Below, piece after piece: positions 21,137-53,289 of a stretch of DNA of 64,000 nt (position 1 is the first letter of the stretch; each line of letters starts with the position of its first letter). The position numbers were made by a program, and so were the translations under genes. Below the pieces are notes generated by a model that saw only the letters and a list, made by a program, of their open reading frames with translations, was not told the DNA's origin and searched no databases. This stretch comes from Nitrososphaerota archaeon (lineage in GTDB: Archaea > Thermoproteota > Nitrososphaeria > Conexivisphaerales > UBA164): contig JAFLXO010000003.1 in NCBI GenBank assembly GCA_029786595.1, positions 4,990-68,989 of the forward strand, in the 5' to 3' direction.

Positions 21137-21841
21137 TTATGGGTTAAGTTTAGTCCCAATCAGCCCATTAAGCGCTGCATCTATCGACTTCGCCCCAGAT
21201 GATCCATTGAAATAACGCGTTGATATACGCGATCTTTCAAGGATCTTTGCCGCTGTTATGTCAAACACGTCGTATGTGCCTGCTTTGTTGTCTTGGTGCT
21301 GGTTGATTAGTAGGCTTATCAGATCTGAATACCGCATTTCTCTGATCAAGACAGCCGTTTTGTCTTGTTTAGGATCGGCATTGTATACGCCGTCTACGTC
21401 TGACACCTTCAATACGATGTCTGCCCCAACTGCTTCTGCTAATAAGGCAGCGACAGTAGTTGTCGAATGCCCAGGTTCGGTCCCGCCCATGACTACGATC
21501 TTACCAATATCTCTTGCAGCGACCGCTTCTTCAATAGAAATGGGGATGTGTTGGGCCGCCAGGCTGCCCAGCGCCCCAGCGAGTATTTTTGCATACATCC
21601 TGGTTATCATGATACCAACCGTGTCGATGGCGCCTTCGTTCAGTCTCAGCTCCCTTCCAAATCTACTGAACCGTTCCTTTAACTCTCCACCGCCGATGAC
21701 CACATGAATTTCAGCCCCGTCTAAACATAGCTGGCGTATTTTTGCTATATAATCAGATACTATTGTCGGATTGAGTCCGTTTCCAACTACAGAGCCTCCT
21801 AAGGCAAGCACTATCCGCACGTTTCCACCTCCACCTTTCAT
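21137..21841 (-). CDS. pyrH: UMP kinase, archaeal type (amino-acid-kinase fold)
   Basis: IVLALGGSVV, VVIGGGELKERF and VVMGGTEPGHSTTTVAALLAEAVGADIVLKVSDVDGVYNADPKQD match the archaeal PyrH pattern along the whole 234 aa. Confidence 0.8.
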   Translation of the reverse strand: MKGGGGNVRIVLALGGSVVGNGLNPTIVSDYIAKIRQLCLDGAEIHVVIGGGELKERFSRFGRELRLNEGAIDTVGIMITRMYAKILAGALGSLAAQHIPISIEEAVAARDIGKIVVMGGTEPGHSTTTVAALLAEAVGADIVLKVSDVDGVYNADPKQDKTAVLIREMRYSDLISLLINQHQDNKAGTYDVFDITAAKILERSRISTRYFNGSSGAKSIDAALNGLIGTKLNP

Positions 21842-25980: not shown

Positions 25981-26053
25981 CTCATCTCCTTTGTTGTCTA
26001 AATCGCCGACGGTGGTGGCCTGGGCATCATAGCCCGGCCATATTAAGAGTAAG

Positions 26054-26138
26054 TGCCGAAGGTGGGATTCGAACCCACGAACCCCTAAGGGACGGGATCT
26101 TAAGTCCCGCGCCGTTGACCAGGCTTGGCTACTTCGGC
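26054..26138 (-). tRNA. tRNA-Leu (anticodon UAA), class II with long variable arm
   Basis: Folded by hand. It has a 7-bp acceptor stem (GCCGAAG/CTTCGGC), anticodon stem CGGGA/TCCCG with loop CT-TAA-GA, a 13-nt variable arm (CCC/GGG stem), T arm GTGGG-TTCGAAT-CCCAC and discriminator A. No CCA is encoded. Confidence 0.9.
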
Positions 26139-33045: not shown

Positions 33046-33825
33046 TTACGACAGGGCCTGAATTGCTTCTATTGGTATGTCCTTTTTAATCGCCGTTATG
33101 ACACCAGTTTTGTACTGGGGTGTTATCAGTTGGATGGATTTCTGTACTATTACCGGGTTATTCCGTCTTATGACAACGGCGTGACCGTCAGCATAACTCA
33201 AGTCCATGGTCTTAAAGTCCTTGCCGTTTATCTTGACGTAGTCTTCAATGATGTCGTATTTGTTGTTTAAATCCGACACAACGCTGGCGACTGGATTGCT
33301 TTTTATCTTAAGGAGCGTATAAGGAGACAGAATATTGATTAAATACTGGATGTTGATAGCCTTGGTTTTTATGCTTAAAAGATACGCTATCTGGTTGAAT
33401 GGCGGGACTCTCGTTGGGTTTATGGTCAGCGTCCCTGAGTTGAACGGGATTGATATGGCGTAGCCAGATGTCCCGGTCGTGGTAGCATGTAAGCCTAACT
33501 GGTCGAGCTCCTTCTTGGCCTTGATATATGTGTCAACCATCTCATTAATACCCTGTTCATCGTCTAACCCTAACTTTACCTCAAGTTCATGATAACTACG
33601 GGCGGTCAGACTTTCATCTAACATATACAGCAGCAGGTTGGCAGTAAATTCAGAAACTTCATATGTCTGGATGGCGTGCTTAGTGTTGACGGTGTTGACC
33701 AACGTGCCATTTTGCGCGAGGATCATCAAAGCCCGCATGTCCAAAGGAGACAATGACAACGTGATAAGAGGCTCTTTACCGATCTTCAATGATGGGCGGT
33801 TGTTAAAATTTAATACTACTTTCAT
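33046..33825 (-). CDS. AL-tail paralog family member (subtype F)
   Basis: 259 aa, clearly paralogous to 40614..41390 (VVLNFNNRPSLKIG..MRALMILAQNGTLVNT..IQTYEVSEFTANLLLYMLD). Tail is ITAIKKDIPIEAIQALS. Confidence 0.75.
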   Translation of the reverse strand: MKVVLNFNNRPSLKIGKEPLITLSLSPLDMRALMILAQNGTLVNTVNTKHAIQTYEVSEFTANLLLYMLDESLTARSYHELEVKLGLDDEQGINEMVDTYIKAKKELDQLGLHATTTGTSGYAISIPFNSGTLTINPTRVPPFNQIAYLLSIKTKAINIQYLINILSPYTLLKIKSNPVASVVSDLNNKYDIIEDYVKINGKDFKTMDLSYADGHAVVIRRNNPVIVQKSIQLITPQYKTGVITAIKKDIPIEAIQALS

Positions 33826-34367
33826 CCTTCCACCTTACTAGGGTCCGATAAAGCGCTAGCAACCTCAAACGGAATGTTATGTCTCAATGACGTCCTTACC
33901 ACCTCTGCTGTTGATTCGCAAACAACCGTCGGAGTCGTGTTATCTAGTATAATGGTGTCGTTTATGATACGTTTAGCGTGCTGCTGGGGCGTGATACTAT
34001 ATAGAGCTTTCGGATCACAGACCAAGTCAACGAGCCCTTCATGCGGCGGATACAATACTCTAAATAGGTGCATGTAAGAGTGCAACATCATCTGAGTAAC
34101 CTCGATTTTCAGGACGCCATTGAACGTGATATCGAACCGGTTTGAGGGCAGGGGGTGTATACTCTTGGAGTGTTTATACTCATTAATGTTAAGAAACGTA
34201 AAAGTGCCGTCAGATGTTGTAACCGTCACATTTTTCCTTGCAAATATATCACCAATCGCTGTTTTGATCACTTTGATTTCATCGGTGATAGGGCCTAATA
34301 TGGATTGAATCTTCTCCGGGATGTCGAAATTGTCATATAATACCTTCGATATTTTTGCCGTGACCAC
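33822..34367 (-). pseudogene. C-terminal fragment of a disrupted AL-tail family gene (subtype G, homolog of 41402..42196)
   Basis: VVTAKISKVLYDNFDIPEKIQ..FTFLNINEYKH..LKIEVTQ..LYPPHEGLVDL.. aligns with residues from about 95 to the end of 41402..42196. Tail is LRHNIPFEVASALSDPSKVEG. Only a GTG start is available, so it may still be expressed as a truncated protein. Confidence 0.6.
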
Positions 34368-34614
34368 AGGGTCCTGTGGTGGCGGGCTCTGCTCATGCGA
34401 GAATCAAAAACGGGGGCGGCCATCAGTCCCACTTCATCTCGTGCCTTGCTTCTTGGTAGGCCTGATGCTCCGCGAACTCTTCCGCGTCCATCTCGAACCG
34501 CATCTGTTCGGTGGTCATGCATCCATAGCCATCCATGGCGGGTTATATACGCCTTCCCTCTATCGCCATCCATAGACGTATGGTTAAATACTGGGGCTGT
34601 CGGTAGGATGTCCG

Positions 34615-34758
34615 ATGATGAAGAAATACACGGTCGCGATAACGGAGGAGTTGGAGTGGAGGCTCGAAGCGGAGCGGAAGAGGAGAGCGTTGGACTCCAT
34701 ACCTGAAGTGATGCGAACAATCGTAAGCGAGGCGCTCTCAAAATCTCAGCCCCAGTAG
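34615..34758 (+). CDS. ribbon-helix-helix (CopG/Arc-like) protein, 47 aa
   Basis: Hand-translated: MMKKYTVAITEELEWRLEAERKRRALDSIPEVMRTIVSEALSKSQPQ. It shows a beta strand followed by two helices, typical of RHH regulators and antitoxins. It lies inside the insertion and is below the track cutoff. Confidence 0.5.
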   Translation: MMKKYTVAITEELEWRLEAERKRRALDSIPEVMRTIVSEALSKSQPQ

Positions 34759-34818
34759 TCTCAAAAGGGTTCCAATAGGGATGGCAACCGCAGAAACGGT
34801 AAACAGCATGAAGATAAG

Positions 34819-35199
34819 ATGGGTGTAGTGGTCTTGCAACAGATACCACGCCCGTTTGATTCGGATGAACTGGAAGAGGAAGAAACCAAAGCCATCCTCG
34901 TCCTCGGTATTCTCGCCTCCATCGCCGTCGGTTTTCAGTTGGACTCGGCGCACTCCTTCCCTTTCATTGACCACCTCGGAGCGCCGCCCGTCTGGGTGAG
35001 GGTCTTCGAAATTCTCGGGCTGGTGACGATTGTCTATTTCTTCGTGCTTTACCTTGGTTTCTTGACGTTGACCCTCGCATTCAGGCCAAAAGGGAAGTGG
35101 CTTCGCCGAATGAAGTTTTGGAGCGGGTTCTGTTTCAAAGTGGGTGCGATTGGCCTCGCCCTTGGACTTTGCGCCTACGCTCTCCGAGTCTTTCTCTAA
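34819..35199 (+). CDS. membrane protein (about 3 hydrophobic segments) inside the insertion
   Basis: 126-aa track ORF directly downstream of the RHH ORF, with segments AILVLGILASIAVGF, ILGLVTIVYFFVLYLGFLTLTLAF and VGAIGLALGLCAYAL. Long spurious ORFs are likely in G+C-rich DNA, so this call is uncertain. Confidence 0.4.
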   Translation: MGVVVLQQIPRPFDSDELEEEETKAILVLGILASIAVGFQLDSAHSFPFIDHLGAPPVWVRVFEILGLVTIVYFFVLYLGFLTLTLAFRPKGKWLRRMKFWSGFCFKVGAIGLALGLCAYALRVFL

Positions 35200-35666
35200 G
35201 AGGACTGCCCGGCCTTCGGTTTGGGAGGCAACATGCGAACATAGCGCCACAACTGCAAGAAGAACCCGATGCCCATCACGACGGTGAGAGGAGGAATCGT
35301 ATAGACGTAGACTACCGTTGGTATGGGAAGGTAATGATGAACGGTTATGAACCCTGGTGTGAACTCGTAGTTGTAGACCCAGTTGAGCCCATTCACGAAT
35401 GTCGCGAGGGTGACTATCACAGACCACCAGACTTGACTCTGAACCCCACGGGCGTATCTCCTCCCCTTGTATGGCCAAAGTTCGCCCTTTCGCTCCGGCC
35501 AGATTACCATTACTGTGAGCAAGATGGCCAGGGGTAGAAAGAAGAGGGCGATAATGCGGAGAGGTGTGCTGGGAAAGGTCACGCTGAAGGCCAAGTCCAT
35601 GAATACAAGGAATATGGCGGCGGGGACAATCCTGTTTGCGACCGACCTGTCCAACGCTACCTGCAC
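35196..35666 (-). CDS. membrane protein (about 4 hydrophobic segments) inside the insertion
   Basis: 156-aa track ORF convergent with 34819..35199. Its hydrophobic segments look protein-like. Confidence 0.4.
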   Translation of the reverse strand: MQVALDRSVANRIVPAAIFLVFMDLAFSVTFPSTPLRIIALFFLPLAILLTVMVIWPERKGELWPYKGRRYARGVQSQVWWSVIVTLATFVNGLNWVYNYEFTPGFITVHHYLPIPTVVYVYTIPPLTVVMGIGFFLQLWRYVRMLPPKPKAGQSS

Positions 35667-35763
35667 CCTCCTGTGTCAAATGATTTAGCCATTCGGCATC
35701 GTCCGGATGTTGCGGGTCTGGTGCTGACCCTCCCCGGCCCAAGCCAACGCAACAGAACCCCCA

Positions 35764-35955
35764 TACGAACCCGGCAAGCCTGTCTGGGATTTCTATCCTG
35801 AGACGTCCATTATCCGTTAGTGACACCTTACCGTTTGAACAGAGTATGGCCCAGACCCCATCCCGTATTTTTCCGTTTTCAGTGTAAAACGCGGCGGTTT
35901 CTACCCTGCTGCCAAATACGATCGAGTTATGGGATACATACACGGTTGCTGTCAT
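35764..35955 (-). pseudogene. N-terminal fragment of the disrupted subtype G family gene
   Basis: MTATVYVSHNSIVFGSRVETAAFYTENGKIRDGVWAILCSNGKVSLTDNGRLRIEIPDRL aligns with the N-terminus of 41402..42196 (..LVLAILCSNGKISSPTPENIRIEIPDRF). The 405-aa track ORF continues as read-through into the insertion. Confidence 0.6.
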
Positions 35956-35981
35956 GGCAAATCACCCCTGTGCACTTAAGG

Positions 35982-36740
35982 TTATTTGGTGTTTGAACTA
36001 AGCGCTTCTGCTACCTTTATCGATACCCCGTTCTTCATGGCTGTTAACACTGTCCCGATAATGTTTTTGTTGATATTTTGTATCATCGTTGGCTTAGAAC
36101 TAAGGTACTGGGTGACGAATACCAGCCCATCTGCGATAAGAATCTGACCGTCATGGAGCAAATACCCACCCAACAACATTGATAGCGTGTTTATGGGGTT
36201 TCGTATGAGATCCGGGACCATTATTCTTGGTATCGACACGTCAGTCAGCAACACTTGTGCTTTTTTGTTGATCATTAAAACCCGCCAGAGCTTGGCGTTT
36301 GGGGCCCTTGACAAAAAGGTCTCAACCGTCTTGTTGGTAAGGGTGATTTCTACGGCGTCTTCTAACTTCATCACACAATAGATTATCTCATCAGCGTCCT
36401 TTGGCGTCATTTTGATTAATGAAGCGTCGTCGGCTTTTAAATCGGAGTCGCTGAGACCTATATGGAGGTCCGCAGGGTTGACATGTGTTATATCAGCCAT
36501 CATCATATACCTGAGCAGGGTGTCAGAGACGTATATCTCGCCTGATATGCTGGCCTGGTGCCCGTTTACTGAAAATACCTTCTCGATAAATGCTCGCGGG
36601 ATCGTTGAAAACTCAAACTCATTTTTGGGTATAAAATACGGAGATGCCACGCCGCTTTTTGAAATGTCGATCCTGGTTGTTTTCTGGGATGCGTCCTCTG
36701 GGAATGCTGTTAGTATTTTTACAATCGCCAAGGAGGTCAC
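35982..36740 (-). CDS. AL-tail family member (distinct body)
   Basis: 252 aa. Tail is VLTAMKNGVSIKVAEALSSNTK. Confidence 0.6.
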   Translation of the reverse strand: MTSLAIVKILTAFPEDASQKTTRIDISKSGVASPYFIPKNEFEFSTIPRAFIEKVFSVNGHQASISGEIYVSDTLLRYMMMADITHVNPADLHIGLSDSDLKADDASLIKMTPKDADEIIYCVMKLEDAVEITLTNKTVETFLSRAPNAKLWRVLMINKKAQVLLTDVSIPRIMVPDLIRNPINTLSMLLGGYLLHDGQILIADGLVFVTQYLSSKPTMIQNINKNIIGTVLTAMKNGVSIKVAEALSSNTK

Positions 36741-37168
36741 CTCTTCCTTCTGACTTTTTCATGCTCAGCAGCATACTTGTTAGACTCTAGGGTTATCTTT
36801 GTCAGACGCCTGCAGAACATACCGAGCTCTGCTTTATGACGTTTATCTATAGGACGTCCTTTGGTCTTAGCATACGCAATCATCAAGACTTCATCTTCAG
36901 CCCGCTCAACCAAAATCATGGACGTGTTTAGGTATTTGGTTAAAAAGACGCGTTCCTCCTGAGGAAGGCGCATGTCACTGGTAACAGTCTTGATGAGATT
37001 TGTTATCTCATCGTAAACCGGGGCTATATTGATTATATCATTGGTGCGTATCCGTTCTACGCTAGATCCGACAAGTCTTGATACGAGACTGGCGTAATAC
37101 TGGATTACACTATTGATATGGGCGGTCGTAGACGGCATGACAACTTCAGAACCTACTATATGATCCAT
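36737..37168 (-). CDS. hypothetical protein
   Basis: 143-aa ORF with a 4-nt overlap with 35982..36740. Confidence 0.55.
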   Translation of the reverse strand: MDHIVGSEVVMPSTTAHINSVIQYYASLVSRLVGSSVERIRTNDIINIAPVYDEITNLIKTVTSDMRLPQEERVFLTKYLNTSMILVERAEDEVLMIAYAKTKGRPIDKRHKAELGMFCRRLTKITLESNKYAAEHEKVRRKR

Positions 37169-37274
37169 ATGATGAAGAGGCGCACGGTATTTAAAAACGT
37201 TTCTGTCCTGGTAATATCAGCTGCCCGCGAAGGCACGACCGGCGCCCTTTAAGACTAGATGACGTTGTCTAAGT

Positions 37275-37934
37275 TTAAGGACTGAGCGCTTCGAGGGCGT
37301 CGATTGGAACTCCAGTCAGGATTGAAGACACCACAGTTTTAGGTATCTTTCCGATTTTACTGTATAATGTTTTGTAGCCATCATTGTATTCTGTTATCCA
37401 TTCTGTATTATCTGGTAACGACATTGAAAGACCCGAAATGACCCCGTTCAAGTTCTCTACTAGATTGAAGATGAGTCTCCTGGTTATCTTGACGTTCATT
37501 AACCGCAAACTAACCTCGTGGTTTTTAAGAATGATTACGCCAACATCATTTTGTGTGAATATGACTGAGCAAGTTATCCCGTCATTTGAGATTTCCACTG
37601 GAGTTTCTGTCGATAAAGTCCATATATCGCGCATTTTTATGATGTTATCTAGGTTCACTGAAAATGGGTTGCCGGCTAAAAGGCAGTCCCTTACAACATT
37701 CCAAGTTGAGGTCATCAGAGGGGTTGTTTCTAATAGATAAACGCATATCTTGGCTGTTTCTTTTGATACATGCGCCTCAAAAATGAGGGCATCGCGTCTT
37801 CGCCAGCGATTTTTAAGCGCCATGACGATTATTGGGCCGGCGACGTCATTAAACTTTGTTATATAACAGCTTAGAGGTAGTTTGTCCAGTCCGGTAAACG
37901 TAAACCAGTTCAACGAGGAAGCGACATACTGCAC
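37275..37934 (-). CDS. AL-tail family member (distinct body)
   Basis: 219 aa. Tail is VVSSILTGVPIDALEALSP. Confidence 0.6.
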   Translation of the reverse strand: MQYVASSLNWFTFTGLDKLPLSCYITKFNDVAGPIIVMALKNRWRRRDALIFEAHVSKETAKICVYLLETTPLMTSTWNVVRDCLLAGNPFSVNLDNIIKMRDIWTLSTETPVEISNDGITCSVIFTQNDVGVIILKNHEVSLRLMNVKITRRLIFNLVENLNGVISGLSMSLPDNTEWITEYNDGYKTLYSKIGKIPKTVVSSILTGVPIDALEALSP

Positions 37935-40613: not shown

Positions 40614-41390
40614 TTACTTCAGTGCTGTCAGCGCCTCTAATGGAATGTCTTTCATGATTGCTGTTATGATGTCGGATTTGTATTGTCTCGAGAGTTTTTG
40701 GACTTTCATGACCTTTTTTACTGGGATGCCTCGCCTTATCACCGTGGTCAGGATCTGGTCAGACGGCGGCCAGACCTTGATGGTATAATCTTTGCCGTTT
40801 ATTTTAATATAACCGTCAGTGATCATAAACGGGCTGTTCAGATCAGACACGACCTTCTTTATAGGGTCATTCTTCAAATATAGCAGACTGCTAGCGGAAA
40901 AAAGGACCGTAAGATATTGAATGTGGAGGTCCAAAGTCTTTATATCGAAGAGAAACACGTTGGGATTATTGTGATAAGTGGTAGAGAACGTCACAGGACG
41001 TATCCTTAATGCCCCTGAGTTGAACGGGATTGATATGCTCCCACCACCCTTCCCATGTGCAGGCGTGATTAACGCCTCAAATTCTTTCCTGGCCTCGACA
41101 TGCTTGTCGACCATGGCGCCGAGCTCTTTCACGCTCCTGACCCCACCAATCTTCCTTTCAAGTTCTATGGAATCTGGGGAGTCCAGGATATACCGCAGCA
41201 GATTAGCGGTGTCTTCTGGGACTTCGTAGGTGTGGATGAGGTGGGGTGATAAGATGGTGCTGATCTTTGTGCCGCTCTCTCCAAGGATTATCATCGCCTG
41301 TAGATGCAGCCCCCATGGTGCTAGCTTATACGGGCCGTCGTCCCCGATCTGTATTGTGGGATGGTTGTTGAAATTTATTATCACGCGCAT
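40614..41390 (-). CDS. AL-tail paralog family member (subtype F)
   Basis: 258 aa, paralogous to 33046..33825. Tail is ITAIMKDIPLEALTALK. Confidence 0.75.
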   Translation of the reverse strand: MRVIINFNNHPTIQIGDDGPYKLAPWGLHLQAMIILGESGTKISTILSPHLIHTYEVPEDTANLLRYILDSPDSIELERKIGGVRSVKELGAMVDKHVEARKEFEALITPAHGKGGGSISIPFNSGALRIRPVTFSTTYHNNPNVFLFDIKTLDLHIQYLTVLFSASSLLYLKNDPIKKVVSDLNSPFMITDGYIKINGKDYTIKVWPPSDQILTTVIRRGIPVKKVMKVQKLSRQYKSDIITAIMKDIPLEALTALK

Positions 41391-41401
41391 TTTTCCACCA
41401 C

Positions 41402-42196
41402 CTAGTTCGTTTCTGATATCAAAGCCTTAGCCGCATTGAACGATATCTGGCGCTTTAAAGCCACAGACAAGACCTCGGATGTCATATAACGATCCGCCCA
41501 TGGGGTCGTGCCGTCTATGACAATATTGCCATCTATGGCACAGCGCGCATTTCGGAGTGCCATGCAGGTCGCGGAACTTCCAAGTTTGCTAGCCAGCTCA
41601 ATAAGACCTAAATGTGGCGGAAGTACCATCTCATAGAAGGTGGTTTCATGCCTTACTCGTATGCGCCAAAGTTCGATTTTAACAGTTCCTTCGAACTTTA
41701 TATCAAGATAACCTAAAAACGTGCGTAGACTTTTGGTCTTTGGACGCACCGAATGCCATTTATGAGGTATGAACGTAAAGACGCCACCGTCGAATGCTGT
41801 GACTACGGTCGGCTTCTCCCGTTCTAGACTGTCTATTATTGTGTCGAATGACGCTGCCTGCTTTATAATCTGGTTAAGGGCTCCAGGAATCCTTTCAGGG
41901 GTGTCAAAATTGTCATGCAATATCTGGGGCAATATATTGTCCACGACGTCAGAAGTGAACCGCCAATGGCCTACCTTGTATGTATCCAGAATGGCGTTCA
42001 CTACTTCAATAAAGCGGTCTGGGATTTCGATTCTTATATTTTCTGGGGTGGGTGATGATATTTTCCCATTAGAGCAAAGTATCGCCAAGACGAGGTTCCT
42101 TACTTTAACCCCATTATTGAGGAACGACATTTGCTCGTTCCTGTCGCCCATCGTGATCACATTGTTTGTTATAAAAACAACCGCCATGCGCCTCAC
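41402..42196 (-). CDS. AL-tail paralog family member (subtype G, intact copy)
   Basis: 264 aa. It is the intact counterpart of the split gene at 33822..35955. Tail is SVALKRQISFNAAKALISETN. Confidence 0.7.
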   Translation of the reverse strand: MRRMAVVFITNNVITMGDRNEQMSFLNNGVKVRNLVLAILCSNGKISSPTPENIRIEIPDRFIEVVNAILDTYKVGHWRFTSDVVDNILPQILHDNFDTPERIPGALNQIIKQAASFDTIIDSLEREKPTVVTAFDGGVFTFIPHKWHSVRPKTKSLRTFLGYLDIKFEGTVKIELWRIRVRHETTFYEMVLPPHLGLIELASKLGSSATCMALRNARCAIDGNIVIDGTTPWADRYMTSEVLSVALKRQISFNAAKALISETN

Positions 42197-42285
42197 CTCG
42201 TGTGTTGTTCACTGAAATCCCTCTGGTCCCTTTTGGTTCAACTGGCGATGGGATCTGGCCTTTATCTGCAGGTCTTCCTCTGCAA

Positions 42286-42648
42286 TCAGCCCAGCGCCGC
42301 TACCGCCTGGATCGGTATACCTTTTTGGATGGCCGTGAAGACCGCTTCTCTCATTTCAGTTGTCTTCGCCACCGGCTTTCCGTCAATCCACATGTCGAAC
42401 TGTTCTTTAAAAAGCTCCTCCCAGATGTTATTCAATATGTGCCGTAGCTGGTCCTCTTCACAGCCAAATAACTTATCGCAGGAGCAAAACAGAGCGCTTT
42501 GTATAACGATTTTGTTGGAGGGGGTCTTTATCACAGTTGTCCAGCCCGATACCTTCTCAAAGTTAGAGGTGACGATGGTGCTATTGAACACAAACTTACG
42601 GTGGGCGTGCTTATCTGGGGCTTCGTGGGGGTTACTCGTTGGACTCAC
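42286..42648 (-). CDS. AL-tail family member (short subtype E)
   Basis: 120 aa, paralogous to 38334..38699. Tail is VFTAIQKGIPIQAVAALG. Confidence 0.6.
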   Translation of the reverse strand: MSPTSNPHEAPDKHAHRKFVFNSTIVTSNFEKVSGWTTVIKTPSNKIVIQSALFCSCDKLFGCEEDQLRHILNNIWEELFKEQFDMWIDGKPVAKTTEMREAVFTAIQKGIPIQAVAALG

Positions 42649-42783: not shown

Positions 42784-43794
42784 TTAGGCAGTTTCTCGTT
42801 TAGCCCGCTTTTGGACGAAGTAGTCTTTATATTCGTTCTCTATCTTGTCTGCGACCTCGTCTGACTTGTCGAACATCTTCAGCCGGCGATACCATTCTGC
42901 TATGAGCACCCGACCCCACTGCACCAGCAACGGCTGCTTGATCAGGTCCAGCATGCGGATCGCACTTGTTACCCGCTCAGCCTGATCAGCTCCTGGCTTC
43001 ACACAATGGAGGTTTATGTTGTTGACTGTTTTCAGATCGCTCTGGAGGCGGTAATACGAGTCTGGTCCTAAAGGTATGGGTTTGTAATGGTCATAGACGT
43101 TATCTGACGGCAACTGATCCAAGATTGCCCGGACCATCTTTACATCAGATTCATACAGATGTAACGAGTTGGTGATATGGGTGTATGACCCGAGCCCGAC
43201 TCCAAGGTCTGCCGCGAACACTTGCTGATAGAACTGGAAGGTGAAGGTGTCAAGACATAACCCTATCCTGGCGTCATTAGAGCGCATATTGGTTATGGCG
43301 TGCAGTTTGTCGTCTCGTATCAGGTATGACAGGCTTATCGTGCACGCGATGTCTGGTGACTCATATACTTCCTGGATCGGGTTGTGTATTATGGCGACGG
43401 CGCGCCTGGTGTCCTTCTGGTCACGCAGGGTGTCATATATCCTGTGAAACTGGTGCAGCCCTGTTATTTTCAGGCGGTCGTAATAATACCCATAATAGGT
43501 CCCGGTCACCGGGTTTATGAAACGTTCTACTTGTTTGTTATACGCGATCCCTGTAGGCTTCGAGTTAAACAGGAAATCAAGCGTCTCTGCCATGCCGAAG
43601 GGGAGCGGGAGATCTCTGCCCGGGGGGTTAATATAATTCTCCCTTGGGTTCCTGAACGTAAGCACGGCCGGATAAAATTCCTTAGTGTTCATTTCACGGG
43701 GCGATGCCGGCAACCCGAATTCAAGCAGGTCCCTGACTATATTGGGCCATTCACGCGCCGAGCTTTCTCCTTCTTTTTGGTACATGCACACCAC
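42784..43794 (-). CDS. thymidylate synthase (ThyA)-fold pyrimidine C5 methylase/hydroxymethylase, possibly dCMP-specific
   Basis: ThyA landmarks are in order: DTRRAVAIIHN (RR phosphate clamp), IACTISL (catalytic Cys), NMRSNDARIGLCLDTF (QRSxDxxLGxPFN equivalent) and SLHLY. The Asn of PFN aligns with Asp. Confidence 0.7.
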   Translation of the reverse strand: MVCMYQKEGESSAREWPNIVRDLLEFGLPASPREMNTKEFYPAVLTFRNPRENYINPPGRDLPLPFGMAETLDFLFNSKPTGIAYNKQVERFINPVTGTYYGYYYDRLKITGLHQFHRIYDTLRDQKDTRRAVAIIHNPIQEVYESPDIACTISLSYLIRDDKLHAITNMRSNDARIGLCLDTFTFQFYQQVFAADLGVGLGSYTHITNSLHLYESDVKMVRAILDQLPSDNVYDHYKPIPLGPDSYYRLQSDLKTVNNINLHCVKPGADQAERVTSAIRMLDLIKQPLLVQWGRVLIAEWYRRLKMFDKSDEVADKIENEYKDYFVQKRAKRETA

Positions 43795-43951
43795 CTCTTA
43801 TTCAGATTCAGAGCCTGGGTTCACATCAGACTCTGTTTTAACCGGTAGATTGATTATGCCAGTCTGTCCATAGATATGCTGTTTCACTGAAGATGACCTG
43901 ATACCACCCTATTTAAACTGGTTTCTATGAAGCCTGGGCCTGGAGAGGGTG

Positions 43952-44341
43952 TCACTCCTCAACAGCATTACGCCCTGTTTTGTTGACGATTGTTATCACT
44001 TCGTTTACTGCTCCGACAGCCGCCTTAGCTGCCGCCTTGCTCTGCGACGCCCCGACGGTTGTTTCTGATTTAGCCTCTGGGTGTTCAAGGTTGTTCCTCA
44101 GATGCCTGAGGGCATTGACGTTATCACTGAACGTTATTCCTTTGGCCGCCAGCCTTGAAGTCAAAACCATCCGTTCTTGCGACCTTTCGTCTTCACTGAT
44201 TTCCACACTGCAGCCGAACCGTTCACAGAGACGTATTATCAGCAATTGGACGAGCAAATCAGCCTCTAAGACCACAGCATCGTAGAACCCTTGTTTATAT
44301 AGGGCTCTTATTTCGTCAATCTTGTCATTAATCTCTGGCAT
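43952..44341 (-). CDS. HEPN-like (DUF4145-type) helical protein
   Basis: 129 aa and all-helical in appearance. It carries an R-x4-H motif in LRHLRNNLEHPE, preceded by AAKGITFSDNVNAL. Confidence 0.45.
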   Translation of the reverse strand: MPEINDKIDEIRALYKQGFYDAVVLEADLLVQLLIIRLCERFGCSVEISEDERSQERMVLTSRLAAKGITFSDNVNALRHLRNNLEHPEAKSETTVGASQSKAAAKAAVGAVNEVITIVNKTGRNAVEE

Positions 44342-45345: not shown

Positions 45346-46980
45346 TCATACCAGCCCGGCTTGCTGCTGTTGCTTCTTAAGTAGATCTTGGAGAACGAGT
45401 TTGCCCGCTTCTTCTGGCCTGATGGCGAACATATAGACCCCTTTGTTATTGAACTTCATAATCTGCTCTTTCAAAGAACTCCTGCTGGGGTCTTCGGTGA
45501 CCAGACTTATGACCACCCGGTTTTGTTTTGCCAGGCTGAATATCTGGGTACTCGCTTGTTCTGCTTCACTCACGGACCCGTCAGTGATTATGAGGATGAA
45601 AGATTCTGCCGGGGTTAGTTTTTCGACCTCATTTAACGCAGAAGTGATGACCGTGTTACCGCCGGTCTTGCTCCTGAGCTCAGAGATGTGTGCAAGCGTT
45701 GAGATAGCCCGGGACCCGACCCCCACCCAGTCCTTCGAATTCTTTTCAGTGGTCGCCGCGCGGCTCCCGAAGTAAATCAAAGACGCTGGGATTCTGTTCT
45801 TTTTGGCGTATGCGAGGCTCCTTACCGCCGTTATCGTCTCCCAGTAAAGGATCGACCTGTCTTTGAAGAAGGTGTCTGTAGAAGTCGACACGTCGATGAC
45901 CGCTATGAACGATTTGAACCCGAACGACTGGTTCTCCTGTTTGATATACCTGAAGACGCTTGTGTACTTCTTCTTCCACTTGGTGGGCTCGTACCTGTTT
46001 TGCGCGACACTGATTGGGTTTAGCCTGGAGACGTCTCCGCCGAGCCACCGTTTGTTAAGCTTCTGGTATATCGGCATCTGTGAACTGGAGCCTTCCAGGA
46101 TGTTGAACGGGAGTATCGAGTCCCATATGAGCTGCCTGGTCATATCCTTGGATATGTCTGCGATGGCGTCGTCTGCGTTGATATCGTTGTTATTGAGCAA
46201 GTCTTTGATCTGGTCGGCGCTAAGGCCTGCCTGTATCCCGATCCCTGCCACGGCGCTACCCTGAGATGTGGGAGTTGCCTGGCCTCTGCCGCTTCCACAC
46301 GCCCCTTCCTGAGACCCTGACTGTATTAAGGAATTGAGGTTCTTAGCAGCATCGACGATCAAATCGATGTTTTTTTCGACCTTGCAGGCTTCTTGCTCCT
46401 TTATGAGCCTGTAGACGTCACTGACAAGGGTCCTAAATGCTGGAGAGGACCTGATACTGCCATCCATATACGTCTTAGGTACCTTTACCCCCATTGTTTC
46501 GGAATAGACCATCTGCAATATATGGAACCCTGAACCTGGCGTGATTTTGCCGTTCTTGACGATCCAGTCTTCCTGTGCGCTACGCATGGCGAACCCTTTG
46601 CTGTCGAGGACACTGTCAATGACGGCGTCTGCGATGATGTTCTCCAGTTCATGGGCTTTGCCGTTCGGCACCCTCAGCTCTGCCATGATCCTGGCCTCGA
46701 TGCGCTTGCCTTCTAAGAAAGAGCTAGGCAGCCCATCTATCGACATGTGCTCGTGCTCATGGCCCATATGTGCCCGTAGGTGCTCGGGTTTGAAGCTGTT
46801 CCAGGTCGGTGGGATGTAGATGGTCATATCAGCATACGACGATGAGAACGTGGTCGCCGTCCTGTCTAATTTTACTGTGACGCCCTGAGGTGGAGGAGGG
46901 AATAAATTCCTCCTTACCTCTAGAGCTACATCAATCAATTCCTTAGGCGCTGGTTCTGGTTTTTGAGCCTGTGTGCGCAT
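45346..46980 (-). CDS. VWA-domain protein with N-terminal zincin-like (HExxH) domain, MoxR partner
   Basis: 544 aa. The N-terminus has HMGHEHEHMS (HExxH). The C-terminal VWA-like region has IAVIDVSTSTD (a degenerate DxSxS MIDAS). It lies immediately downstream of the MoxR-like ATPase. Confidence 0.6.
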   Translation of the reverse strand: MRTQAQKPEPAPKELIDVALEVRRNLFPPPPQGVTVKLDRTATTFSSSYADMTIYIPPTWNSFKPEHLRAHMGHEHEHMSIDGLPSSFLEGKRIEARIMAELRVPNGKAHELENIIADAVIDSVLDSKGFAMRSAQEDWIVKNGKITPGSGFHILQMVYSETMGVKVPKTYMDGSIRSSPAFRTLVSDVYRLIKEQEACKVEKNIDLIVDAAKNLNSLIQSGSQEGACGSGRGQATPTSQGSAVAGIGIQAGLSADQIKDLLNNNDINADDAIADISKDMTRQLIWDSILPFNILEGSSSQMPIYQKLNKRWLGGDVSRLNPISVAQNRYEPTKWKKKYTSVFRYIKQENQSFGFKSFIAVIDVSTSTDTFFKDRSILYWETITAVRSLAYAKKNRIPASLIYFGSRAATTEKNSKDWVGVGSRAISTLAHISELRSKTGGNTVITSALNEVEKLTPAESFILIITDGSVSEAEQASTQIFSLAKQNRVVISLVTEDPSRSSLKEQIMKFNNKGVYMFAIRPEEAGKLVLQDLLKKQQQQAGLV

Positions 46981-46986
46981 TATTTG

Positions 46987-48594
46987 CTACCTCCCTGCGG
47001 TCTTGTCGGTTAACGCTGATATGGCACCTGAAAAGTCAATCTGTGGGTTGATCTGGTCCAGGACCGTCATGTCGCCTTTCTTCCTGGCCGTCTCTTTTAT
47101 CATGTCGATGGCCTCGTCCAGAATAGACCTGATTATGAGCTGGTCGATATATTGGTTCCGGAGTTTCATGGCCTCGCCGATGTCTTTGGTGACCCAGACG
47201 TTTCTGATCGTCTTGAAGTCCTTGGTGAGCAATTTCGCCTGCTCCACGTATTCCTTAACAAGCGCAGCGGTTGCCTTATATTGGTCACCGTATTTTATGA
47301 GGAAATCGGTGCTGTTCCAGAGCACCCTGTGGCTCAGAGACATGATTAGAGCTGGCTCTAGTTCGGGTGTCGACGCGACCTGCCGCTTGTTGATTAGCGC
47401 CAAGATCTTCAGAGCCTCAGTGGCGACTATTATAGGCCTTACCTTTGTGATGTTGCCCTTTGAGCATGGGAACGACTTATACGCGCATAAGTCGCAGTCC
47501 TTTGTCACCATGAACGGGTCGAACGACTCCATGATCCGGTTCTGCTTGGTGGGGGTATAATAGCATCGCGACAGATGTGACACCAGCCCTATAAGGAACG
47601 TCTCGAGGCCGTCGTCGATTTTGACCGTCTTGACAGCCTGCCTTGCCTTGTAGATGATTTCGATCGGCACTGGTTTGATGTTCCCCTTGAGCCGCTCTAA
47701 CTTTTGTATGATTTCCTTAATCTCTTGCACTGAAGGCGCGGCTGCCATGGTCGAAAACGCGTATCTGTCGAACGTGGCGGCGTCTGTCAGCGCGACGTTG
47801 CTCTGGAAGTGTTCGTTTAATGGGTTCGTCGCAAGTATGATGGTGAGCGGCTTGTACTCGACGCGCCCGATGGCGGTATCGTAATACCCCTCATTGAGTA
47901 TCCTGTGGATTTGCGCCAGGAGCATTGGGCCCTTGAACGCTTCGTCCAGGATTGCCAGATCAGCGCCTAGCATCCTGCCCTTCTTCTCTACATGAGGTGG
48001 TTTGCGGCCTAACATTATCGGATGGTCTATTACGGTCCCGAGTATGTCCTGTGGCTCATCCAGGTTGGTCAGGGTCTTGATATAGACAGTTATGGGGACG
48101 TCCTTTACAGGCCCCAGGCTGGCCGATTTGGGGTGTTTTAGAACATCTATTTCTACTTTGACCCCGAGTATGGTCCCAAATTCGGTGTAGTTGACATCCA
48201 CCCCGTCGACCAGGTTCTTGCTCAGCGCGTCAGCGTCCACACCGATCTTAGCTGCGATTTCACCGACGTATTTCAGCAGCTCCCTCTCTGGTATGTAACC
48301 GGACGCTTCAGCCTTTGTGGTGAAATCCTTTTCCAGAGTAACCACAGGCTTGTTGAATAAAGAGCCTATGAACTCTGCTATCGAGGTCTTGAAAACCCCT
48401 GGCGGGCCCTGAATAAGGACCGGTTTCCCGGCCAGGGTCCCCACCAAGATTGTGTTGGCCATCTGCCATTGCGAATACCCCCGATACACGTTGGTGATGA
48501 TACTGAATATCTGGTTCAGCATCACAGAAGTTTGTTCGAACTCCGTGATCTGCTGTGTCGCTTCTGTAGTAGTTACCATTTTCTTACCTCCCAA
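46987..48594 (-). CDS. MoxR-like AAA+ ATPase
   Basis: Walker A is LIQGPPGVFKTSIAE, Walker B is LAILDEAFKG and sensor-1-like is IILATNPLNE, followed by a long helical C-terminal extension. Confidence 0.7.
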   Translation of the reverse strand: MGGKKMVTTTEATQQITEFEQTSVMLNQIFSIITNVYRGYSQWQMANTILVGTLAGKPVLIQGPPGVFKTSIAEFIGSLFNKPVVTLEKDFTTKAEASGYIPERELLKYVGEIAAKIGVDADALSKNLVDGVDVNYTEFGTILGVKVEIDVLKHPKSASLGPVKDVPITVYIKTLTNLDEPQDILGTVIDHPIMLGRKPPHVEKKGRMLGADLAILDEAFKGPMLLAQIHRILNEGYYDTAIGRVEYKPLTIILATNPLNEHFQSNVALTDAATFDRYAFSTMAAAPSVQEIKEIIQKLERLKGNIKPVPIEIIYKARQAVKTVKIDDGLETFLIGLVSHLSRCYYTPTKQNRIMESFDPFMVTKDCDLCAYKSFPCSKGNITKVRPIIVATEALKILALINKRQVASTPELEPALIMSLSHRVLWNSTDFLIKYGDQYKATAALVKEYVEQAKLLTKDFKTIRNVWVTKDIGEAMKLRNQYIDQLIIRSILDEAIDMIKETARKKGDMTVLDQINPQIDFSGAISALTDKTAGR

Positions 48595-49902: not shown

Positions 49903-51048
49903 CTACTCTATTATCGTGGTGAACAACGTCCCCTTAAGCTCTGCTACGGCCACCTGGATGTTCTGCGAAGAGTCTTCAGTGGGTGTGAGCCCGCAAGACG
50001 CCGCCAGCCTCTTGGTGGCTGCCAGCAGTTGTGTGTTGTCCTTACTCAACATGGCCTGGAGGGTCGAATCCACCATCTCAGCCGTCGAGTAAACCCTCTC
50101 TAGGCCCAATGCCCTGGAGAGATCCTTGAGCTGGGCTACCTTCCGTGCGGTGGTCTTAGTGGCCATCGTCGTCCCACCGCTCTGGAGGAGCTCGGCCAGT
50201 CTTAGGACCAGGGGCTCGAGCCGGTTCCTTAGGTTGTTCTCAATCTGTGATACCATCTTGTCGCGCCGGGTGTTTATGTCGTTCTCCATCTTTGTAAGTA
50301 ACTCTTGCTTCCTGACGTCGATGTCAGTCATCATTTTTTGTTTCTTCTCGTCTACAAACTTGAGAAGAGACTCGTCAAAGACGCCGGGGCGCATCAGGCT
50401 GAACCTGATGTCTGGATAGGTCATATGCCTCTTTATCTTGGTGGGATCTGCGATCTTGTTCGTTGTGAGGAAGTCGACGATGCTGGCGAAATCAGAGCTG
50501 TCCTCAAACGCCTTTATTTCAGACCTGATGACGCCTTCTACTATGTCTTTATTGATCTTGTCGATTGCCCCATACGCGTCAAGCAGCATGTCCTTATGGA
50601 TGAGCCTCACAGACGTCTTGACGTCCTTTTTGTTGATGTTCTTGATGGTGGTGATGGACGTTGTATATGGCTCCAAGGCTGCCCAGGCCTTGGTGCGGAG
50701 GCTCACGATGTGATTGATTGTGGACCCGGGATATGGGACGAACCGCATCACCCGCTTCCGGTCCTCGACCACCCCTTCTTTGGTCTGGTAGACCATCTTC
50801 GTCATCTCTATGGTGATCCTCTTCCCTCCGCCCCTGCGTGCATGCAATGCGTACTTGTCGTCTATCGTCGCCAGGAGGTCTTCCAGCCGTGCTAGCACCT
50901 CGGGCTGCGACTCTAGATGGGATACGTCGAATATGTAATTGAGTGTTGTGATGTCAGTTATATCCAGGTCAGGTATATACAGTTCCAGTGGGATCAGTTT
51001 GGACTTAAGCGCCAACTGTTGTGTCAATGGTCTTTGCCTCCGTTTCAC
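49903..51048 (-). CDS. hypothetical helical protein
   Basis: 381-aa ORF. Confidence 0.6.
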   Translation of the reverse strand: MKRRQRPLTQQLALKSKLIPLELYIPDLDITDITTLNYIFDVSHLESQPEVLARLEDLLATIDDKYALHARRGGGKRITIEMTKMVYQTKEGVVEDRKRVMRFVPYPGSTINHIVSLRTKAWAALEPYTTSITTIKNINKKDVKTSVRLIHKDMLLDAYGAIDKINKDIVEGVIRSEIKAFEDSSDFASIVDFLTTNKIADPTKIKRHMTYPDIRFSLMRPGVFDESLLKFVDEKKQKMMTDIDVRKQELLTKMENDINTRRDKMVSQIENNLRNRLEPLVLRLAELLQSGGTTMATKTTARKVAQLKDLSRALGLERVYSTAEMVDSTLQAMLSKDNTQLLAATKRLAASCGLTPTEDSSQNIQVAVAELKGTLFTTIIE

Positions 51049-52606
51049 CCTTCTCAGCTACAGGCCCTGTTGGGACCTGGGGGGATGAAGCATCTCTGGG
51101 GTCCGTATCCTTTGATGCTGTCATCCTTTCAGTTATGCTCTTCTTTATAGACGCGGCCTTTTCAGGGACCACCTCTTCGAGCATCTTGAAGAGCGGGGTA
51201 TCGAACACCGGGTATTCGACAGTCCCAGCGAACATGCGTGGCTGGTCCTTCTTCCTGACTTCAAGCCTGGCCCCCTTATCAGTGTACTGGCTTATACCGA
51301 TGGTAAACCCGTCGGTCTCAACCATCGTCTTGAGCTCGTCTACTGAAAGATATGGGTCTATTCTTGCTGTCACTCTCCCGGCAGATGACGCCGAATAAAG
51401 CGCTTCAGCTACCCGGAGGACTGAGCATATGTCGCTGAAGCTTGAGACCGGACTAGTGGTATCAGAATGCGACGACACATTAGAGGTATCCTTTGAAGTT
51501 ACCACAGTAAGTGGAGCTTCAGTGGCTGGAGTAGGCAGGGTTGGTGCAGCTGCCATCTCAACCGGCTGGGGTGTTGGTGCTACGTCCTTTATCATCGGCA
51601 CATATTTTGGTATGTTGTAATCCCACTTGGTGATTGTCATGCTGTCGTCGTCTGATATCTTGGTGTGGTAGAGTTCCTCAAGCCTTTGGCGGAGGGTTTC
51701 TTTATTCCCATCTGGGACTTCCATCTTTGCCTCTTCATCCGTGATTTCACTGAATTTCTTTGTTGTTACTTCAGTTATGATGGCCCTGTCCATCAGTTTC
51801 ATATAATGCCGTCTGTCCCAGCTGCAGGTCAGAGTGACGATATCGTTTGGCAGGTACTCTTTCTGGCCGAACCTGATGGTCGCTGTCTTGGTTTTATTGG
51901 CTATAGCGTTCTCAATAGCCGTTGATGGGAACGAATTGAGTATCTTGTCGTCTGGGAGGTTCCCAACGACCTTCTTAGGGTTGTCAAGCAGCGCCTTGGT
52001 CTGGGTATACATTGCAGGCCATAGAGCGTCCTCATAGTTCTTGGTGAATTCCAGGATCATGGACTCAATGCCTGCGTCATTGCCATAAATGATGATTGCC
52101 GGGGCATTTTTGATGACGCCTGCTTGCGCCTTCCAGTAAGCAAACACCTGAGTGATCCAGGTCCATTCAAACTTACCATTGGTTCTGAACTTGCTCTCAA
52201 GGAGGATTGCTGTCCCGTCAAACGTCAGGTTGCCCTCTATGTCATATGAAATGTTGAACGGCGCTGGCACTGATTGTATCTTTGCATACCCTCGCTGATC
52301 CCAATACCCAATCTTCATCCCTGGGACCAGAAAGTCGATATACCCCTTTATCGTCTCATATTTGCTGTGGACTTCTCTAAGTGGGATTGAATATTCCAGA
52401 AGCGCCTCATAGACGGCGTTTTCTAGCTTCTTGCCCTTCTCTTCACTTGAAAAGTTAGGAGGATGGCGCAACTCATATTCAGCCCGGCCCTTCGCCAGCA
52501 CAGAAGCCCCGACCCGGCCCTGCGAAAGAGCCAGATGGGACTGCAAACGGGCATAAACGTCGTCAACAAATTCCTTTATAGACTTGTCATAGGTCATATT
52601 ACTCAA
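51005..52606 (-). CDS. hypothetical protein, possible PD-(D/E)xK nuclease N-domain plus low-complexity linker
   Basis: 533 aa. GYIDFLVPG ... AILLESKF fits D..(D/E)xK spacing. The central segment is Pro/Thr/Ser-rich (APTPQPVEMAAAPTLPTPATEAP). The nuclease call is weak. Confidence 0.55.
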   Translation of the reverse strand: MSNMTYDKSIKEFVDDVYARLQSHLALSQGRVGASVLAKGRAEYELRHPPNFSSEEKGKKLENAVYEALLEYSIPLREVHSKYETIKGYIDFLVPGMKIGYWDQRGYAKIQSVPAPFNISYDIEGNLTFDGTAILLESKFRTNGKFEWTWITQVFAYWKAQAGVIKNAPAIIIYGNDAGIESMILEFTKNYEDALWPAMYTQTKALLDNPKKVVGNLPDDKILNSFPSTAIENAIANKTKTATIRFGQKEYLPNDIVTLTCSWDRRHYMKLMDRAIITEVTTKKFSEITDEEAKMEVPDGNKETLRQRLEELYHTKISDDDSMTITKWDYNIPKYVPMIKDVAPTPQPVEMAAAPTLPTPATEAPLTVVTSKDTSNVSSHSDTTSPVSSFSDICSVLRVAEALYSASSAGRVTARIDPYLSVDELKTMVETDGFTIGISQYTDKGARLEVRKKDQPRMFAGTVEYPVFDTPLFKMLEEVVPEKAASIKKSITERMTASKDTDPRDASSPQVPTGPVAEKGETEAKTIDTTVGA

Positions 52607-52609
52607 TAT

Positions 52610-52993
52610 TTACTCCTCCTGGTTGGTATACGTCGGGACATTGTCCAATTCTTTCGGCAACAGGCCTCTTTTTACCATTTCCTTGGTATGTATGAAGGCC
52701 ATCAAGTTCCACGCGGCAGCCACATCATGTGGCTCCGATCTATCACCCTCCCGGTATTGGTTGATGTGCCGTAGAGCAGCATCTAGATACCTGGAGAGAT
52801 CGATACCCGCTTCCCAGTTTCGTCCGTTACCATATTTTATAGCACCGCGTTCGCAGTGCATCGCCAGTTCCTTCAAAAATATCGGGCTTATGAGGTCATA
52901 CCGGCCCTTCCCGACCGGAGGTTCCCGGACCGCGCCGGAGTTATATGACACCCTTTTACCAGAGTCTGCAAGTTTTTCACCCATAGAGATCAC
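52610..52993 (-). CDS. dATP/dGTP diphosphohydrolase N-terminal-domain-like (DUF5664-type) protein
   Basis: 127 aa. GKGRYDLISPIFLKELAMHCERGAIKYGNGRNWEAG..YLDAALRHINQY..EPHDVAAAWNLMAFIH matches my recollection of this phage-associated family. Confidence 0.45.
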   Translation of the reverse strand: MISMGEKLADSGKRVSYNSGAVREPPVGKGRYDLISPIFLKELAMHCERGAIKYGNGRNWEAGIDLSRYLDAALRHINQYREGDRSEPHDVAAAWNLMAFIHTKEMVKRGLLPKELDNVPTYTNQEE

Positions 52994-53289
52994 CTCTGTT
53001 CAATGGCACGGAACACCACATACTGCACAAAGTCCTTGAACGGTAATGGGACATTGTTGGCAGCTTTGATTGCCGCCACAGGGTATTCTTTTGCCAGTGC
53101 CCGGATGCGCTTTATCGCCGGTTCTGGCTCGGTGTCGAGCGTGTTCACCAATGTTATAAACTCTTTGATCATTTGGTGGACGCTCGGCTTCTCTATCTCT
53201 TTGTTACACAAAGAGCAGATGTATGTTATGGCGACGTTGCTTTTGTTGTCCTTTGCCCTACACATCTTTCCGCCGCACTCACAAATCAA
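52990..53289 (-). CDS. small zinc-ribbon protein
   Basis: 99 aa with CECGGKMC...CSLCNKE. It has 4-nt overlaps on both sides. Confidence 0.5.
   Translation of the reverse strand: MICECGGKMCRAKDNKSNVAITYICSLCNKEIEKPSVHQMIKEFITLVNTLDTEPEPAIKRIRALAKEYPVAAIKAANNVPLPFKDFVQYVVFRAIEQR

Follow-up and report, generated by a model that had tools for sequence, protein, structure and literature searches.

Pyrimidine hydroxymethylases of the ThyA family are the entry to most known hypermodified phage DNAs and explain the resistance of such DNA to restriction and to some CRISPR nucleases. Here, we describe a ThyA-like gene within a stretch of 64,000 nucleotides (nt) of contig JAFLXO010000003.1 (assembly GCA_029786595.1, positions 4,990 to 68,989 of the forward strand), which we call the window and from whose first letter all positions are counted. 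The window belongs to a giant element whose proteins have been deposited in GenBank as those of a 'Nitrososphaerota archaeon' metagenome-assembled genome (MAG). While enzymes of this kind are well known in phages, the unusual aspect is the setting, i.e., a giant and apparently archaeal element.

Substrate and product of the described family members have been related to a few active-site positions. With respect to the thymidylate synthase ThyA, an N177D exchange leads to cytosine specificity (PMC13326640); the respective residues are D179 in the dCMP hydroxymethylase (dCH) of phage T4 and D186 in MilA (also PMC5175136, PMC6400193), the CMP 5-hydroxymethylase of mildiomycin biosynthesis in Streptomyces rimofaciens (PDB 5jnh, 5b6d, 5b6e, 5jp9). 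An acidic residue in place of Leu143 (L143D/E) is linked to a hydroxymethyl product, a rule that its authors call a correlation, and D169N leads to 5-hydroxylation, i.e., the D169 position is Asn in every 5-hydroxy-dCMP (5hodCMP) synthase tested (PMC13326640). For T4 dCH, Asp179 serves both recognition and protonation of the cytosine, D145 activates the substrate water, and the D145N mutant is inactive (PMC6400193). The preference of MilA for CMP is due to Lys133' and Ala176, and the double mutation A176S/K133R shifts it from CMP to dCMP (PMC5175136). For archaeal viruses, 7-deazaguanine modification and ThyX-type nucleotide genes have been described (PMC8651126), and in the literature we searched no archaeal element is reported to have a dCMP hydroxymethylase.

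Compared to these systems, the gene studied here very probably encodes an enzyme that modifies cytosine nucleotides at C5, with dCMP hydroxymethylase as its most likely specific identity. The full assignment, i.e., a homodimeric deoxycytidylate 5-hydroxymethylase that depends on a folate-type cofactor and, within the thymidylate synthase (TS) family, belongs to the MilA-like branch, is one we make with moderate confidence. The underlying open reading frame (ORF, 42784-43794, minus strand) is present and encodes 336 amino acids (aa) when counted from the GTG at 43794. We consider the ATG at 43785 to be probably the true start, since the GTG falls within a GAGGTGG motif that precedes this ATG and since the start is shared by the orthologue P0001, which begins at the equivalent ATG, and by GenBank entry MDG7036049.1, an identical 333-aa protein annotated as "hypothetical protein". 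The two features are as follows.

42784..43785, minus strand: ThyA-family gene, predicted deoxycytidylate 5-hydroxymethylase of MilA-like architecture (333 aa plus stop from the ATG)
43791..43797, minus strand: GAGGTGG Shine-Dalgarno-like motif, 5 nt upstream of the ATG at 43785

The family relationship is far beyond chance, both by sequence and by structure comparison. Pfam Thymidylat_synt (PF00303) matches with an E-value of 6.5e-13 (48.9 bits vs. a gathering cutoff of 24.3) and PHROG 5131 ('thymidylate synthase') with 1.5e-31, while the NCBIfam thymidylate synthase equivalogs stay below cutoff (best TIGR03283, 67.6 vs. 174.55). Among solved structures, MilA is the closest in sequence (E = 3e-28, about 26% identity); more distant are 9iqu (1e-9), T4 dCH (5e-7) and, at 1e-5, ordinary thymidylate synthases. 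An AlphaFold2 model, made from 58 sequences, has a mean predicted local distance difference test (pLDDT) score of 78.7, with values above 90 for most of the TS core. When compared to PDB with Foldseek, the MilA entries are again best (E = 1e-19, template modeling scores of 0.68-0.74, full length over about 320 columns), thymidylate synthases come after them at 1e-13, and all top matches are TS-family structures. The Foldseek alignment to 5jnh/5b6e also covers the MilA-like C-terminal helical domain, for which the model's pLDDT is only about 55. Similar scores are obtained when the model is compared to a viral structure library, where it matches many 'thymidylate synthase/dCMP hydroxymethylase' proteins of phages. 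As modeled, the fold, the dimer-type phosphate clamp and the catalytic apparatus are those of the TS family in a MilA-like architecture.

For the active site, residues are numbered from the GTG (336 aa) unless marked as counted from the ATG, which lowers each number by 3. We aligned the protein with HMMER as well as with MAFFT L-INS-i, the latter with E. coli ThyA and T4 dCH included, whose sequences are 100% matches to PDB 1aob and 1b49, respectively. HMMER aligns NMRSNDARIGLCLD with NMRSNDVVFGFRND of T4 dCH (Asp179) and with MRANDAFRGAVSD of MilA (Asp186). That is, the position of ThyA Asn177 is taken by Asp182, on which HMMER, MAFFT L-INS-i and structure comparison agree. The original prediction, made from the letters alone, had placed Asp at this position by an ungapped alignment, which was correct. 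Its further claim that the catalytic Cys (IACT) and the Arg clamp (TRR, MRS) are retained holds as well. The respective codons are listed below.

43402..43407, minus strand: Arg130-Arg131 (TRR), equivalent to ThyA R126/R127, the phosphate clamp from the other subunit
43351..43353, minus strand: Asp148 (Asp145 from the ATG; PDIAC), 3 residues before the catalytic Cys, equivalent to ThyA Leu143 and T4 dCH Asp145
43342..43344, minus strand: catalytic Cys151 (Cys148 from the ATG; IACT), equivalent to ThyA C146 and T4 dCH C148
43273..43281, minus strand: Ser172-Asn173-Asp174 (RSND), equivalent to ThyA S167-C168-D169
43249..43251, minus strand: Asp182 (Asp179 from the ATG), the cytosine-specificity determinant, equivalent to ThyA Asn177, T4 dCH Asp179 and MilA Asp186

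In addition, Arg171-Ser172 within MRS correspond to ThyA R166/S167, Arg33 to R21, Glu70 to E58, Tyr104 to Y94, and His212/Tyr214 to H207/Y209. When counted from the ATG, the numbers of Cys148, Asp145, Asp179, Ser169 and Asp171 coincide by chance with those of T4 dCH.

These residues allow for a prediction of substrate and product. Because Asp is found at the base-reading position of a ThyA-fold enzyme, a cytosine nucleotide is the predicted substrate; because Asp is also found at the Leu143 position, hydroxymethylation is favored over methylation. The retained Asp174 (D169 position) disfavors a 5-hydroxy-dCMP synthase, and a deoxyribo substrate is favored over CMP given Arg130 and Ser172, unlike the Lys and Ala of MilA. 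Read from the sequence, the enzyme would thus most likely catalyze dCMP + methylene-tetrahydrofolate + H2O → 5-hydroxymethyl-dCMP + tetrahydrofolate. An internal control of this residue code is provided by phage SP-10, whose annotated dUMP hydroxymethylase is a member of the same clade and has Asn at position 177 and Asp at 143. The original prediction had left the choice between dCMP methylase and dCMP hydroxymethylase; its second option is supported by the Asp at the Leu143 position, while the same residue speaks against the first.

The mechanism may be sketched by homology with T4 dCH and MilA, here with all numbers counted from the ATG. Cys148 would attack C6 of dCMP, Asp179 would read and protonate the cytosine at N3/N4, and Glu67 would open the methylene cofactor. 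Tyr101 would take off the C5 proton. Finally, Asp145 would activate a water that adds to the exocyclic methylene, such that 5-hydroxymethyl-dCMP and the tetrahydro cofactor would be released rather than 5-methyl-dCMP and the dihydro cofactor. Arg127/Arg128 and Ser169 would suit a 2'-deoxyribonucleotide.

The Asp at the Asn177 position had been interpreted as a special "switch" of this gene, which turned out not to be the case. A k-mer-indexed search gave 57 homologues, of which 56 carry Asp here and 55 carry an acidic residue (Asp or Glu) in place of L143; the Asp is also present in all of the 13 closest full-length relatives. When 1.84 billion representatives were searched exhaustively with HMMER, 2580 clusters were obtained at E <= 1e-10 and only 20 at E <= 1e-30. 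The 12 best relatives outside the element family are full-length (31-41% identity), have a common C-terminal NEYxDYFxQK region and are invariant for the Cys, Asp171, Asp179, Arg and Ser (ATG numbering). As far as these sequences go, Asp at the N177 position characterizes the MilA-like clade as a whole and is not a one-off change. Searches for closer relatives in other collections gave little: megablast of 24 kb against a phage collection as well as scans of IMG/VR viral contigs and GTDB genome contigs with the single ThyA-like protein yielded no match, and scanning the GTDB contigs with the subfamily alignment revealed only one Parvarchaeota MAG contig and actinomycete MilA-like genes.

Within the element family, the 333-aa protein is found without any change on 7 contigs, which stem from at least 5 samples. 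Its counterpart in a divergent 431-kb relative of the element shows 89% aa identity, which places the gene among the best-conserved ones of the syntenic block, together with a MazG-like gene (see below). For this pair, the proportion of nonsynonymous differences (pN) is 0.065 while that of synonymous ones (pS) is 0.855, i.e., saturated; we therefore give no numerical dN/dS but take the low pN against the saturated pS as a sign of strong purifying selection.

MilA, a CMP hydroxymethylase, is thus the best match by both sequence and structure and a closer characterized comparison than T4 gp42, which had been named at first. It has the Cys, Glu, Tyr and His/Tyr in common with our protein, as well as the Asp at both the N177 and L143 positions and the C-terminal helical domain. 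Where MilA has Lys133 and Ala176, Arg130 and Ser172 are found here, i.e., the state that turns MilA into a dCMP enzyme. Furthermore, MilA sits in an antibiotic gene cluster, whereas the ThyA-like gene is part of a mobile element. T4 gp42 (PDB 1b49, 6a9a) shares the predicted chemistry and substrate, and equivalents of its Cys148, Asp179, Asp145, Arg123/124, Ser169, Asp171, Glu60 and Tyr96 are present. On the other hand, the sequence similarity only reaches E = 5e-7 over 83 residues, T4 gp42 has 246 aa without the C-terminal domain, and its Ser94 is a Gly here. For the T4 partners gp56, gp1 and alpha/beta-gt, no clear orthologues were seen in the window but only a MazG-like enzyme and a PyrH-type kinase.

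The best phage relatives are gp319 of Bacillus phage G and a 'thymidylate synthase' of Enterococcus phage VPE25 (27-29% identity over 82-89% of the length). Both share the Asp/Asp/Asp/Ser signature, are uncharacterized and come from phages with bacterial hosts. The dUMP hydroxymethylases of SP-10 and SPO1 gp29 type belong to the same clade, with the same architecture and Asp at L143, but keep Asn177 where our protein has Asp. The 5-hydroxy-dCMP synthases are likewise ThyA homologues with N177D and an acidic residue 143 but carry D169N and a flavin, in contrast to the Asp at 169 here. For four relatives, the neighboring genes are informative.

Phage G gp319: alpha-glucosyltransferase and CMP/dCMP deaminase
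VPE25 homologue: dUTPase, beta-glucosyltransferase and a nucleotide-sugar synthetase-like gene
P0201 (41% identity): dUTPase/DCD-like and UDG-family genes
Homologue on the Parvarchaeota MAG contig (L016), the sole archaeal GTDB match: overlapped by a gene with a 5-hydroxymethyl-deoxyuridine (5-hmdU) DNA kinase domain (PF18723, 1e-61)

All of these contexts fit enzymes that supply a 5-hydroxymethyl-pyrimidine for DNA. No such neighbors as the glucosyltransferases, dCMP deaminase or dUTPase of the phage G and VPE25 genes are seen next to the ThyA-like gene of the window. The Parvarchaeota case is of interest on its own. On the Candidatus Parvarchaeota contig JASHWD010000066.1 (L016:3418-5317), the ThyA-like gene of the subfamily shows the Asp/Asp signature and overlaps the 5-hmdU DNA kinase-like gene, and the neighborhood comprises housekeeping genes, i.e., a CMP-kinase-like one (Pfam) as well as a Cbf5-like, a threonine-synthase-like and possibly a ribosomal protein gene (read from translations). 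This hints at hydroxymethyl-pyrimidine DNA hypermodification being encoded on a DPANN archaeal chromosome.

About 80 ORFs of the window were scanned against Pfam and PHROGs. The following genes of the element are candidates for further enzymes of a respective pathway or close neighbors.

52610..52993, minus strand: MazG-like all-alpha NTP pyrophosphohydrolase, 127 aa (PF18909 at 1.1e-19, phrog_801), candidate dCTPase
21137..21841, minus strand: complete archaeal-type UMP kinase PyrH (TIGR02076, 190.4 bits vs. a cutoff of 158), candidate pyrimidine nucleoside-monophosphate kinase
L006:1735-2307, about 7 kb past the window end on a 99.98%-identical contig: NT5C-family 5'(3')-deoxyribonucleotidase (Pfam, 30.4 bits vs. 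24.8)
51005..52606, minus strand: ASCH-domain protein, 533 aa, directly downstream of the MazG-like gene, with homologues only within the element family
43952..44341, minus strand: synteny-conserved 129-aa gene directly upstream of the ThyA-like gene, with an RNNLEH (Rx4H, HEPN-like) motif

The MazG-like protein is 90% identical at the aa level in the syntenic 431-kb relative, and no solved homologue was found in PDB by sequence. An element-encoded PyrH UMP kinase is unusual for a mobile element. Together with the ThyA-like enzyme, the MazG-like protein and PyrH could complete a T4-like pathway, in which both are candidates, and the NT5C-family deoxyribonucleotidase could be another nucleotide-pool enzyme of the same pathway. 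In such a scheme, the MazG-like pyrophosphohydrolase would convert dCTP to dCMP, as done by T4 gp56, which would both supply dCMP and deplete dCTP. The 5-hydroxymethyl-dCMP made by the ThyA-like enzyme would be phosphorylated, possibly by the element's PyrH-type kinase and a nucleoside-diphosphate kinase of the host, and would then be incorporated into the DNA of this giant Nitrososphaerota-associated element.

The two other neighbors are harder to place. The N-terminus of the ASCH protein shows a D91...E137-S-K139 motif that resembles PD-(D/E)xK nucleases (motif identified by eye), and its structure model from four orthologues has a pLDDT of 38, i.e., no usable fold. A link of this protein to the recognition of modified or unmodified cytosine is speculative. 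The 129-aa protein matches Pfam HEPN at E = 0.076, which is not significant.

That the element DNA may carry 5-hydroxymethylcytosine (5hmC) is a reasonable inference. A far-reaching version is that these giant elements (185 kb to at least 431 kb) replace cytosine wholly or largely by 5hmC, or by a derivative made by ORFan enzymes, in a pre-replicative manner that would combine parts other than those of T4, namely the MazG-like dCTPase, the MilA-like dCMP hydroxymethylase and the PyrH-type kinase; the adjacent PD-(D/E)xK-like/ASCH protein might then distinguish modified from unmodified DNA. We put this forward as a tentative proposal that is rather doubtful.

Several observations weigh against the enzyme assignment or its extension to DNA. 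First, the position of T4 dCH Ser94, part of a Ser/Thr-x-Tyr motif, is a Gly (Gly102-Tyr103-Tyr104), and this Gly is invariant across the closest subfamily, whose alignment is gap-free over the motif. There is a slight ambiguity, as the Tyr-rich loop GTYYGYYYD also allows for another register (Thr99-Tyr100-Tyr101), which is the one used by the HMMER alignment to MilA. Second, the L143 rule that favors hydroxymethylation is, by its authors' own description, a correlation. Third, the 64-kb window yielded no detectable DNA polymerase, glycosyltransferase, dCMP deaminase or T4-type dNMP kinase, and neither 5-HMUDK nor dihydrofolate reductase (DHFR) was recognized therein; since most of the scanned ORFs match nothing, a novel tailoring enzyme may escape such a scan. 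Fourth, the most avoided 4-bp palindromes of the window are GATC (observed/expected ratio 0.66, z = -7.4) and GTAC (0.58, z = -6.4), and those of the divergent 431-kb relative (L001+L004) are GATC (0.57), AGCT (0.73) and GTAC (0.69). The avoidance suggests that restriction at such sites still acts on the lineage. Since all avoided palindromes contain C, this is mild evidence against a complete protective replacement of C, though the pattern could merely mirror the oligonucleotide usage of the host.

Among the alternative explanations, the one that survives best accepts a genuine cytosine-nucleotide hydroxymethylase but not the incorporation of its product into the element DNA. Here, the enzyme would manipulate the nucleotide pool, act in a small-molecule pathway (on CMP, MilA/BcmA-like) or support a partial or conditional modification. 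It is in line with the closest solved relative being an antibiotic-pathway enzyme, with the next cellular relatives found in Streptomyces and Actinoallomurus, with the lack of recognized downstream DNA-modification genes in the window and with the persisting palindrome avoidance; in addition, the giant element possibly coexists with its host and is not obviously a lytic virus. Nevertheless, we consider this explanation unlikely, given that the ribo-specificity residues Lys133 and Ala176 of MilA are Arg and Ser here, that no MilB-like glycosidase or other biosynthetic genes are found nearby, and that the viral and mobile-element relatives adjoin DNA glucosyltransferases or DNA kinases.

Less probable still is a dCMP methyltransferase like that of Xanthomonas phage XP12, which would result in pre-replicative 5-methylcytosine (m5C) in the element DNA. 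An archaeal precedent is halovirus PhiN, for which a complete replacement by m5C has reportedly been observed. Asp at position 177 alone is compatible with methylation, i.e., N177D mutants of ThyA are described as methylating dCMP in work cited by PMC13326640. The residue 3 positions before the catalytic Cys is, however, Asp rather than a bulky hydrophobic one, a point that follows the correlative L143 rule. Further arguments against a methylase are the MilA-like C-terminal helical domain, which takes the place of the C-terminal tail with which TS closes over its cofactor during hydride transfer, and the missing DHFR in the window.

A flavin-dependent 5-hydroxy-dCMP synthase, as known from RB69 gp48, DLP3 gp80 and RL38J1 gp216, is very improbable. 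These enzymes are ThyA homologues with N177D and L143E, and for at least RL38J1 gp216 MilA is the best structural match, too, but Asp is kept at D169 in our protein as well as in the whole subfamily (RSND/RSED). Moreover, PDB 9iqu/9iqc (N at D169, D at N177), which we take to be probable representatives of the 5-hydroxy-dCMP synthase class, match at 1e-9 only. An enzyme for uracil nucleotides, be it an ordinary thymidylate synthase or a dUMP hydroxymethylase, is equally remote: although the Pfam, PHROG and NCBIfam families are all named 'thymidylate synthase', Asp replaces Asn177, the NCBIfam equivalogs are far under their cutoffs, and the SP-10 dUMP hydroxymethylase of the same clade keeps the Asn.

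The remaining window content characterizes the element that carries the predicted dCMP hydroxymethylase. About 96 ORFs are found, nearly all on the minus strand and most without any match. The element is giant and mostly ORFan, with contigs of up to 185 kb and 111 kb beside the divergent 431-kb relative, and it recurs in several metagenome assemblies (related loci L001, L003-L009). GC content is 44% in the 431-kb relative vs. 49% here, and synteny between both is kept in the order MazG-like, ASCH, a 381-aa protein, MoxR, VWA, HEPN-like, ThyA-like, variable insertions and DUF1286. Relative to the 431-kb element, paralogue copies have been inserted between the ThyA-like gene and DUF1286. The element also encodes a TFB of its own.

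2613-3515, minus strand: transcription factor TFB (Pfam TFIIB at 7e-43), with its nearest cellular relatives in Nitrososphaeria (about 53% identity)

A TFIIS-type zinc-ribbon protein is encoded just beyond the window (L006:4577-4885). No capsid, terminase or conjugation genes were recognized in the element, and no publication describing it, or giant Nitrososphaerota elements of its kind, was found in the literature searched. A Borg-like identity was rejected, given only one weak tandem repeat, a GC content of 46-52%, and a TFB that is nearest to Nitrososphaeria and not to Methanoperedens.

Several further features were observed along the window. Its sole Rfam/ARAGORN match is a tRNA-Leu(TAA) gene (26053-26138, minus strand). 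Expanded paralogue families are located at 726-12191, 33046-37934 and 40614-42648 and encode proteins of about 180-400 aa, many of which end with '...IP(L/I)..V.AL'; by BLASTP, they fall into one set of 6 members, another of 4 and several pairs. A ThiF-like E1 gene adjoins a JAB-like gene (59953-61306, minus strand), with a second JAB paralogue at 24005-24571 (minus strand); these could form a ubiquitin-like conjugation/deconjugation module or could be Cap2/Cap3-like. The MoxR-like ATPase and VWA pair spans 45346-48594 (minus strand), apart from a DUF2201 metallopeptidase/VWA protein at 55426-56679 (minus strand). Three RNA-ligase-like genes and an ATP-dependent DNA ligase are found at 16616-17296, 31660-32544, 53286-54662 and 63153-64000 (all minus strand), where the DNA ligase is cut by the window end and comprises 573 aa in L006:8175-9896. 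The window further encodes a RecJ/DHH-like protein, an endonuclease VII and an RNase T-like exonuclease.

If the element DNA indeed contained 5hmC, the counter-defense strategy of phages would extend to archaea of the ammonia-oxidizer phylum, which would also affect how such elements are linked to their hosts by metagenomic and methylation-based approaches. The enzyme set for the synthesis of hmC DNA would then be a divergent and compact one. Within the literature searched, no modified-pyrimidine DNA system of an archaeal mobile element has been defined genetically, such that this one would be the first.

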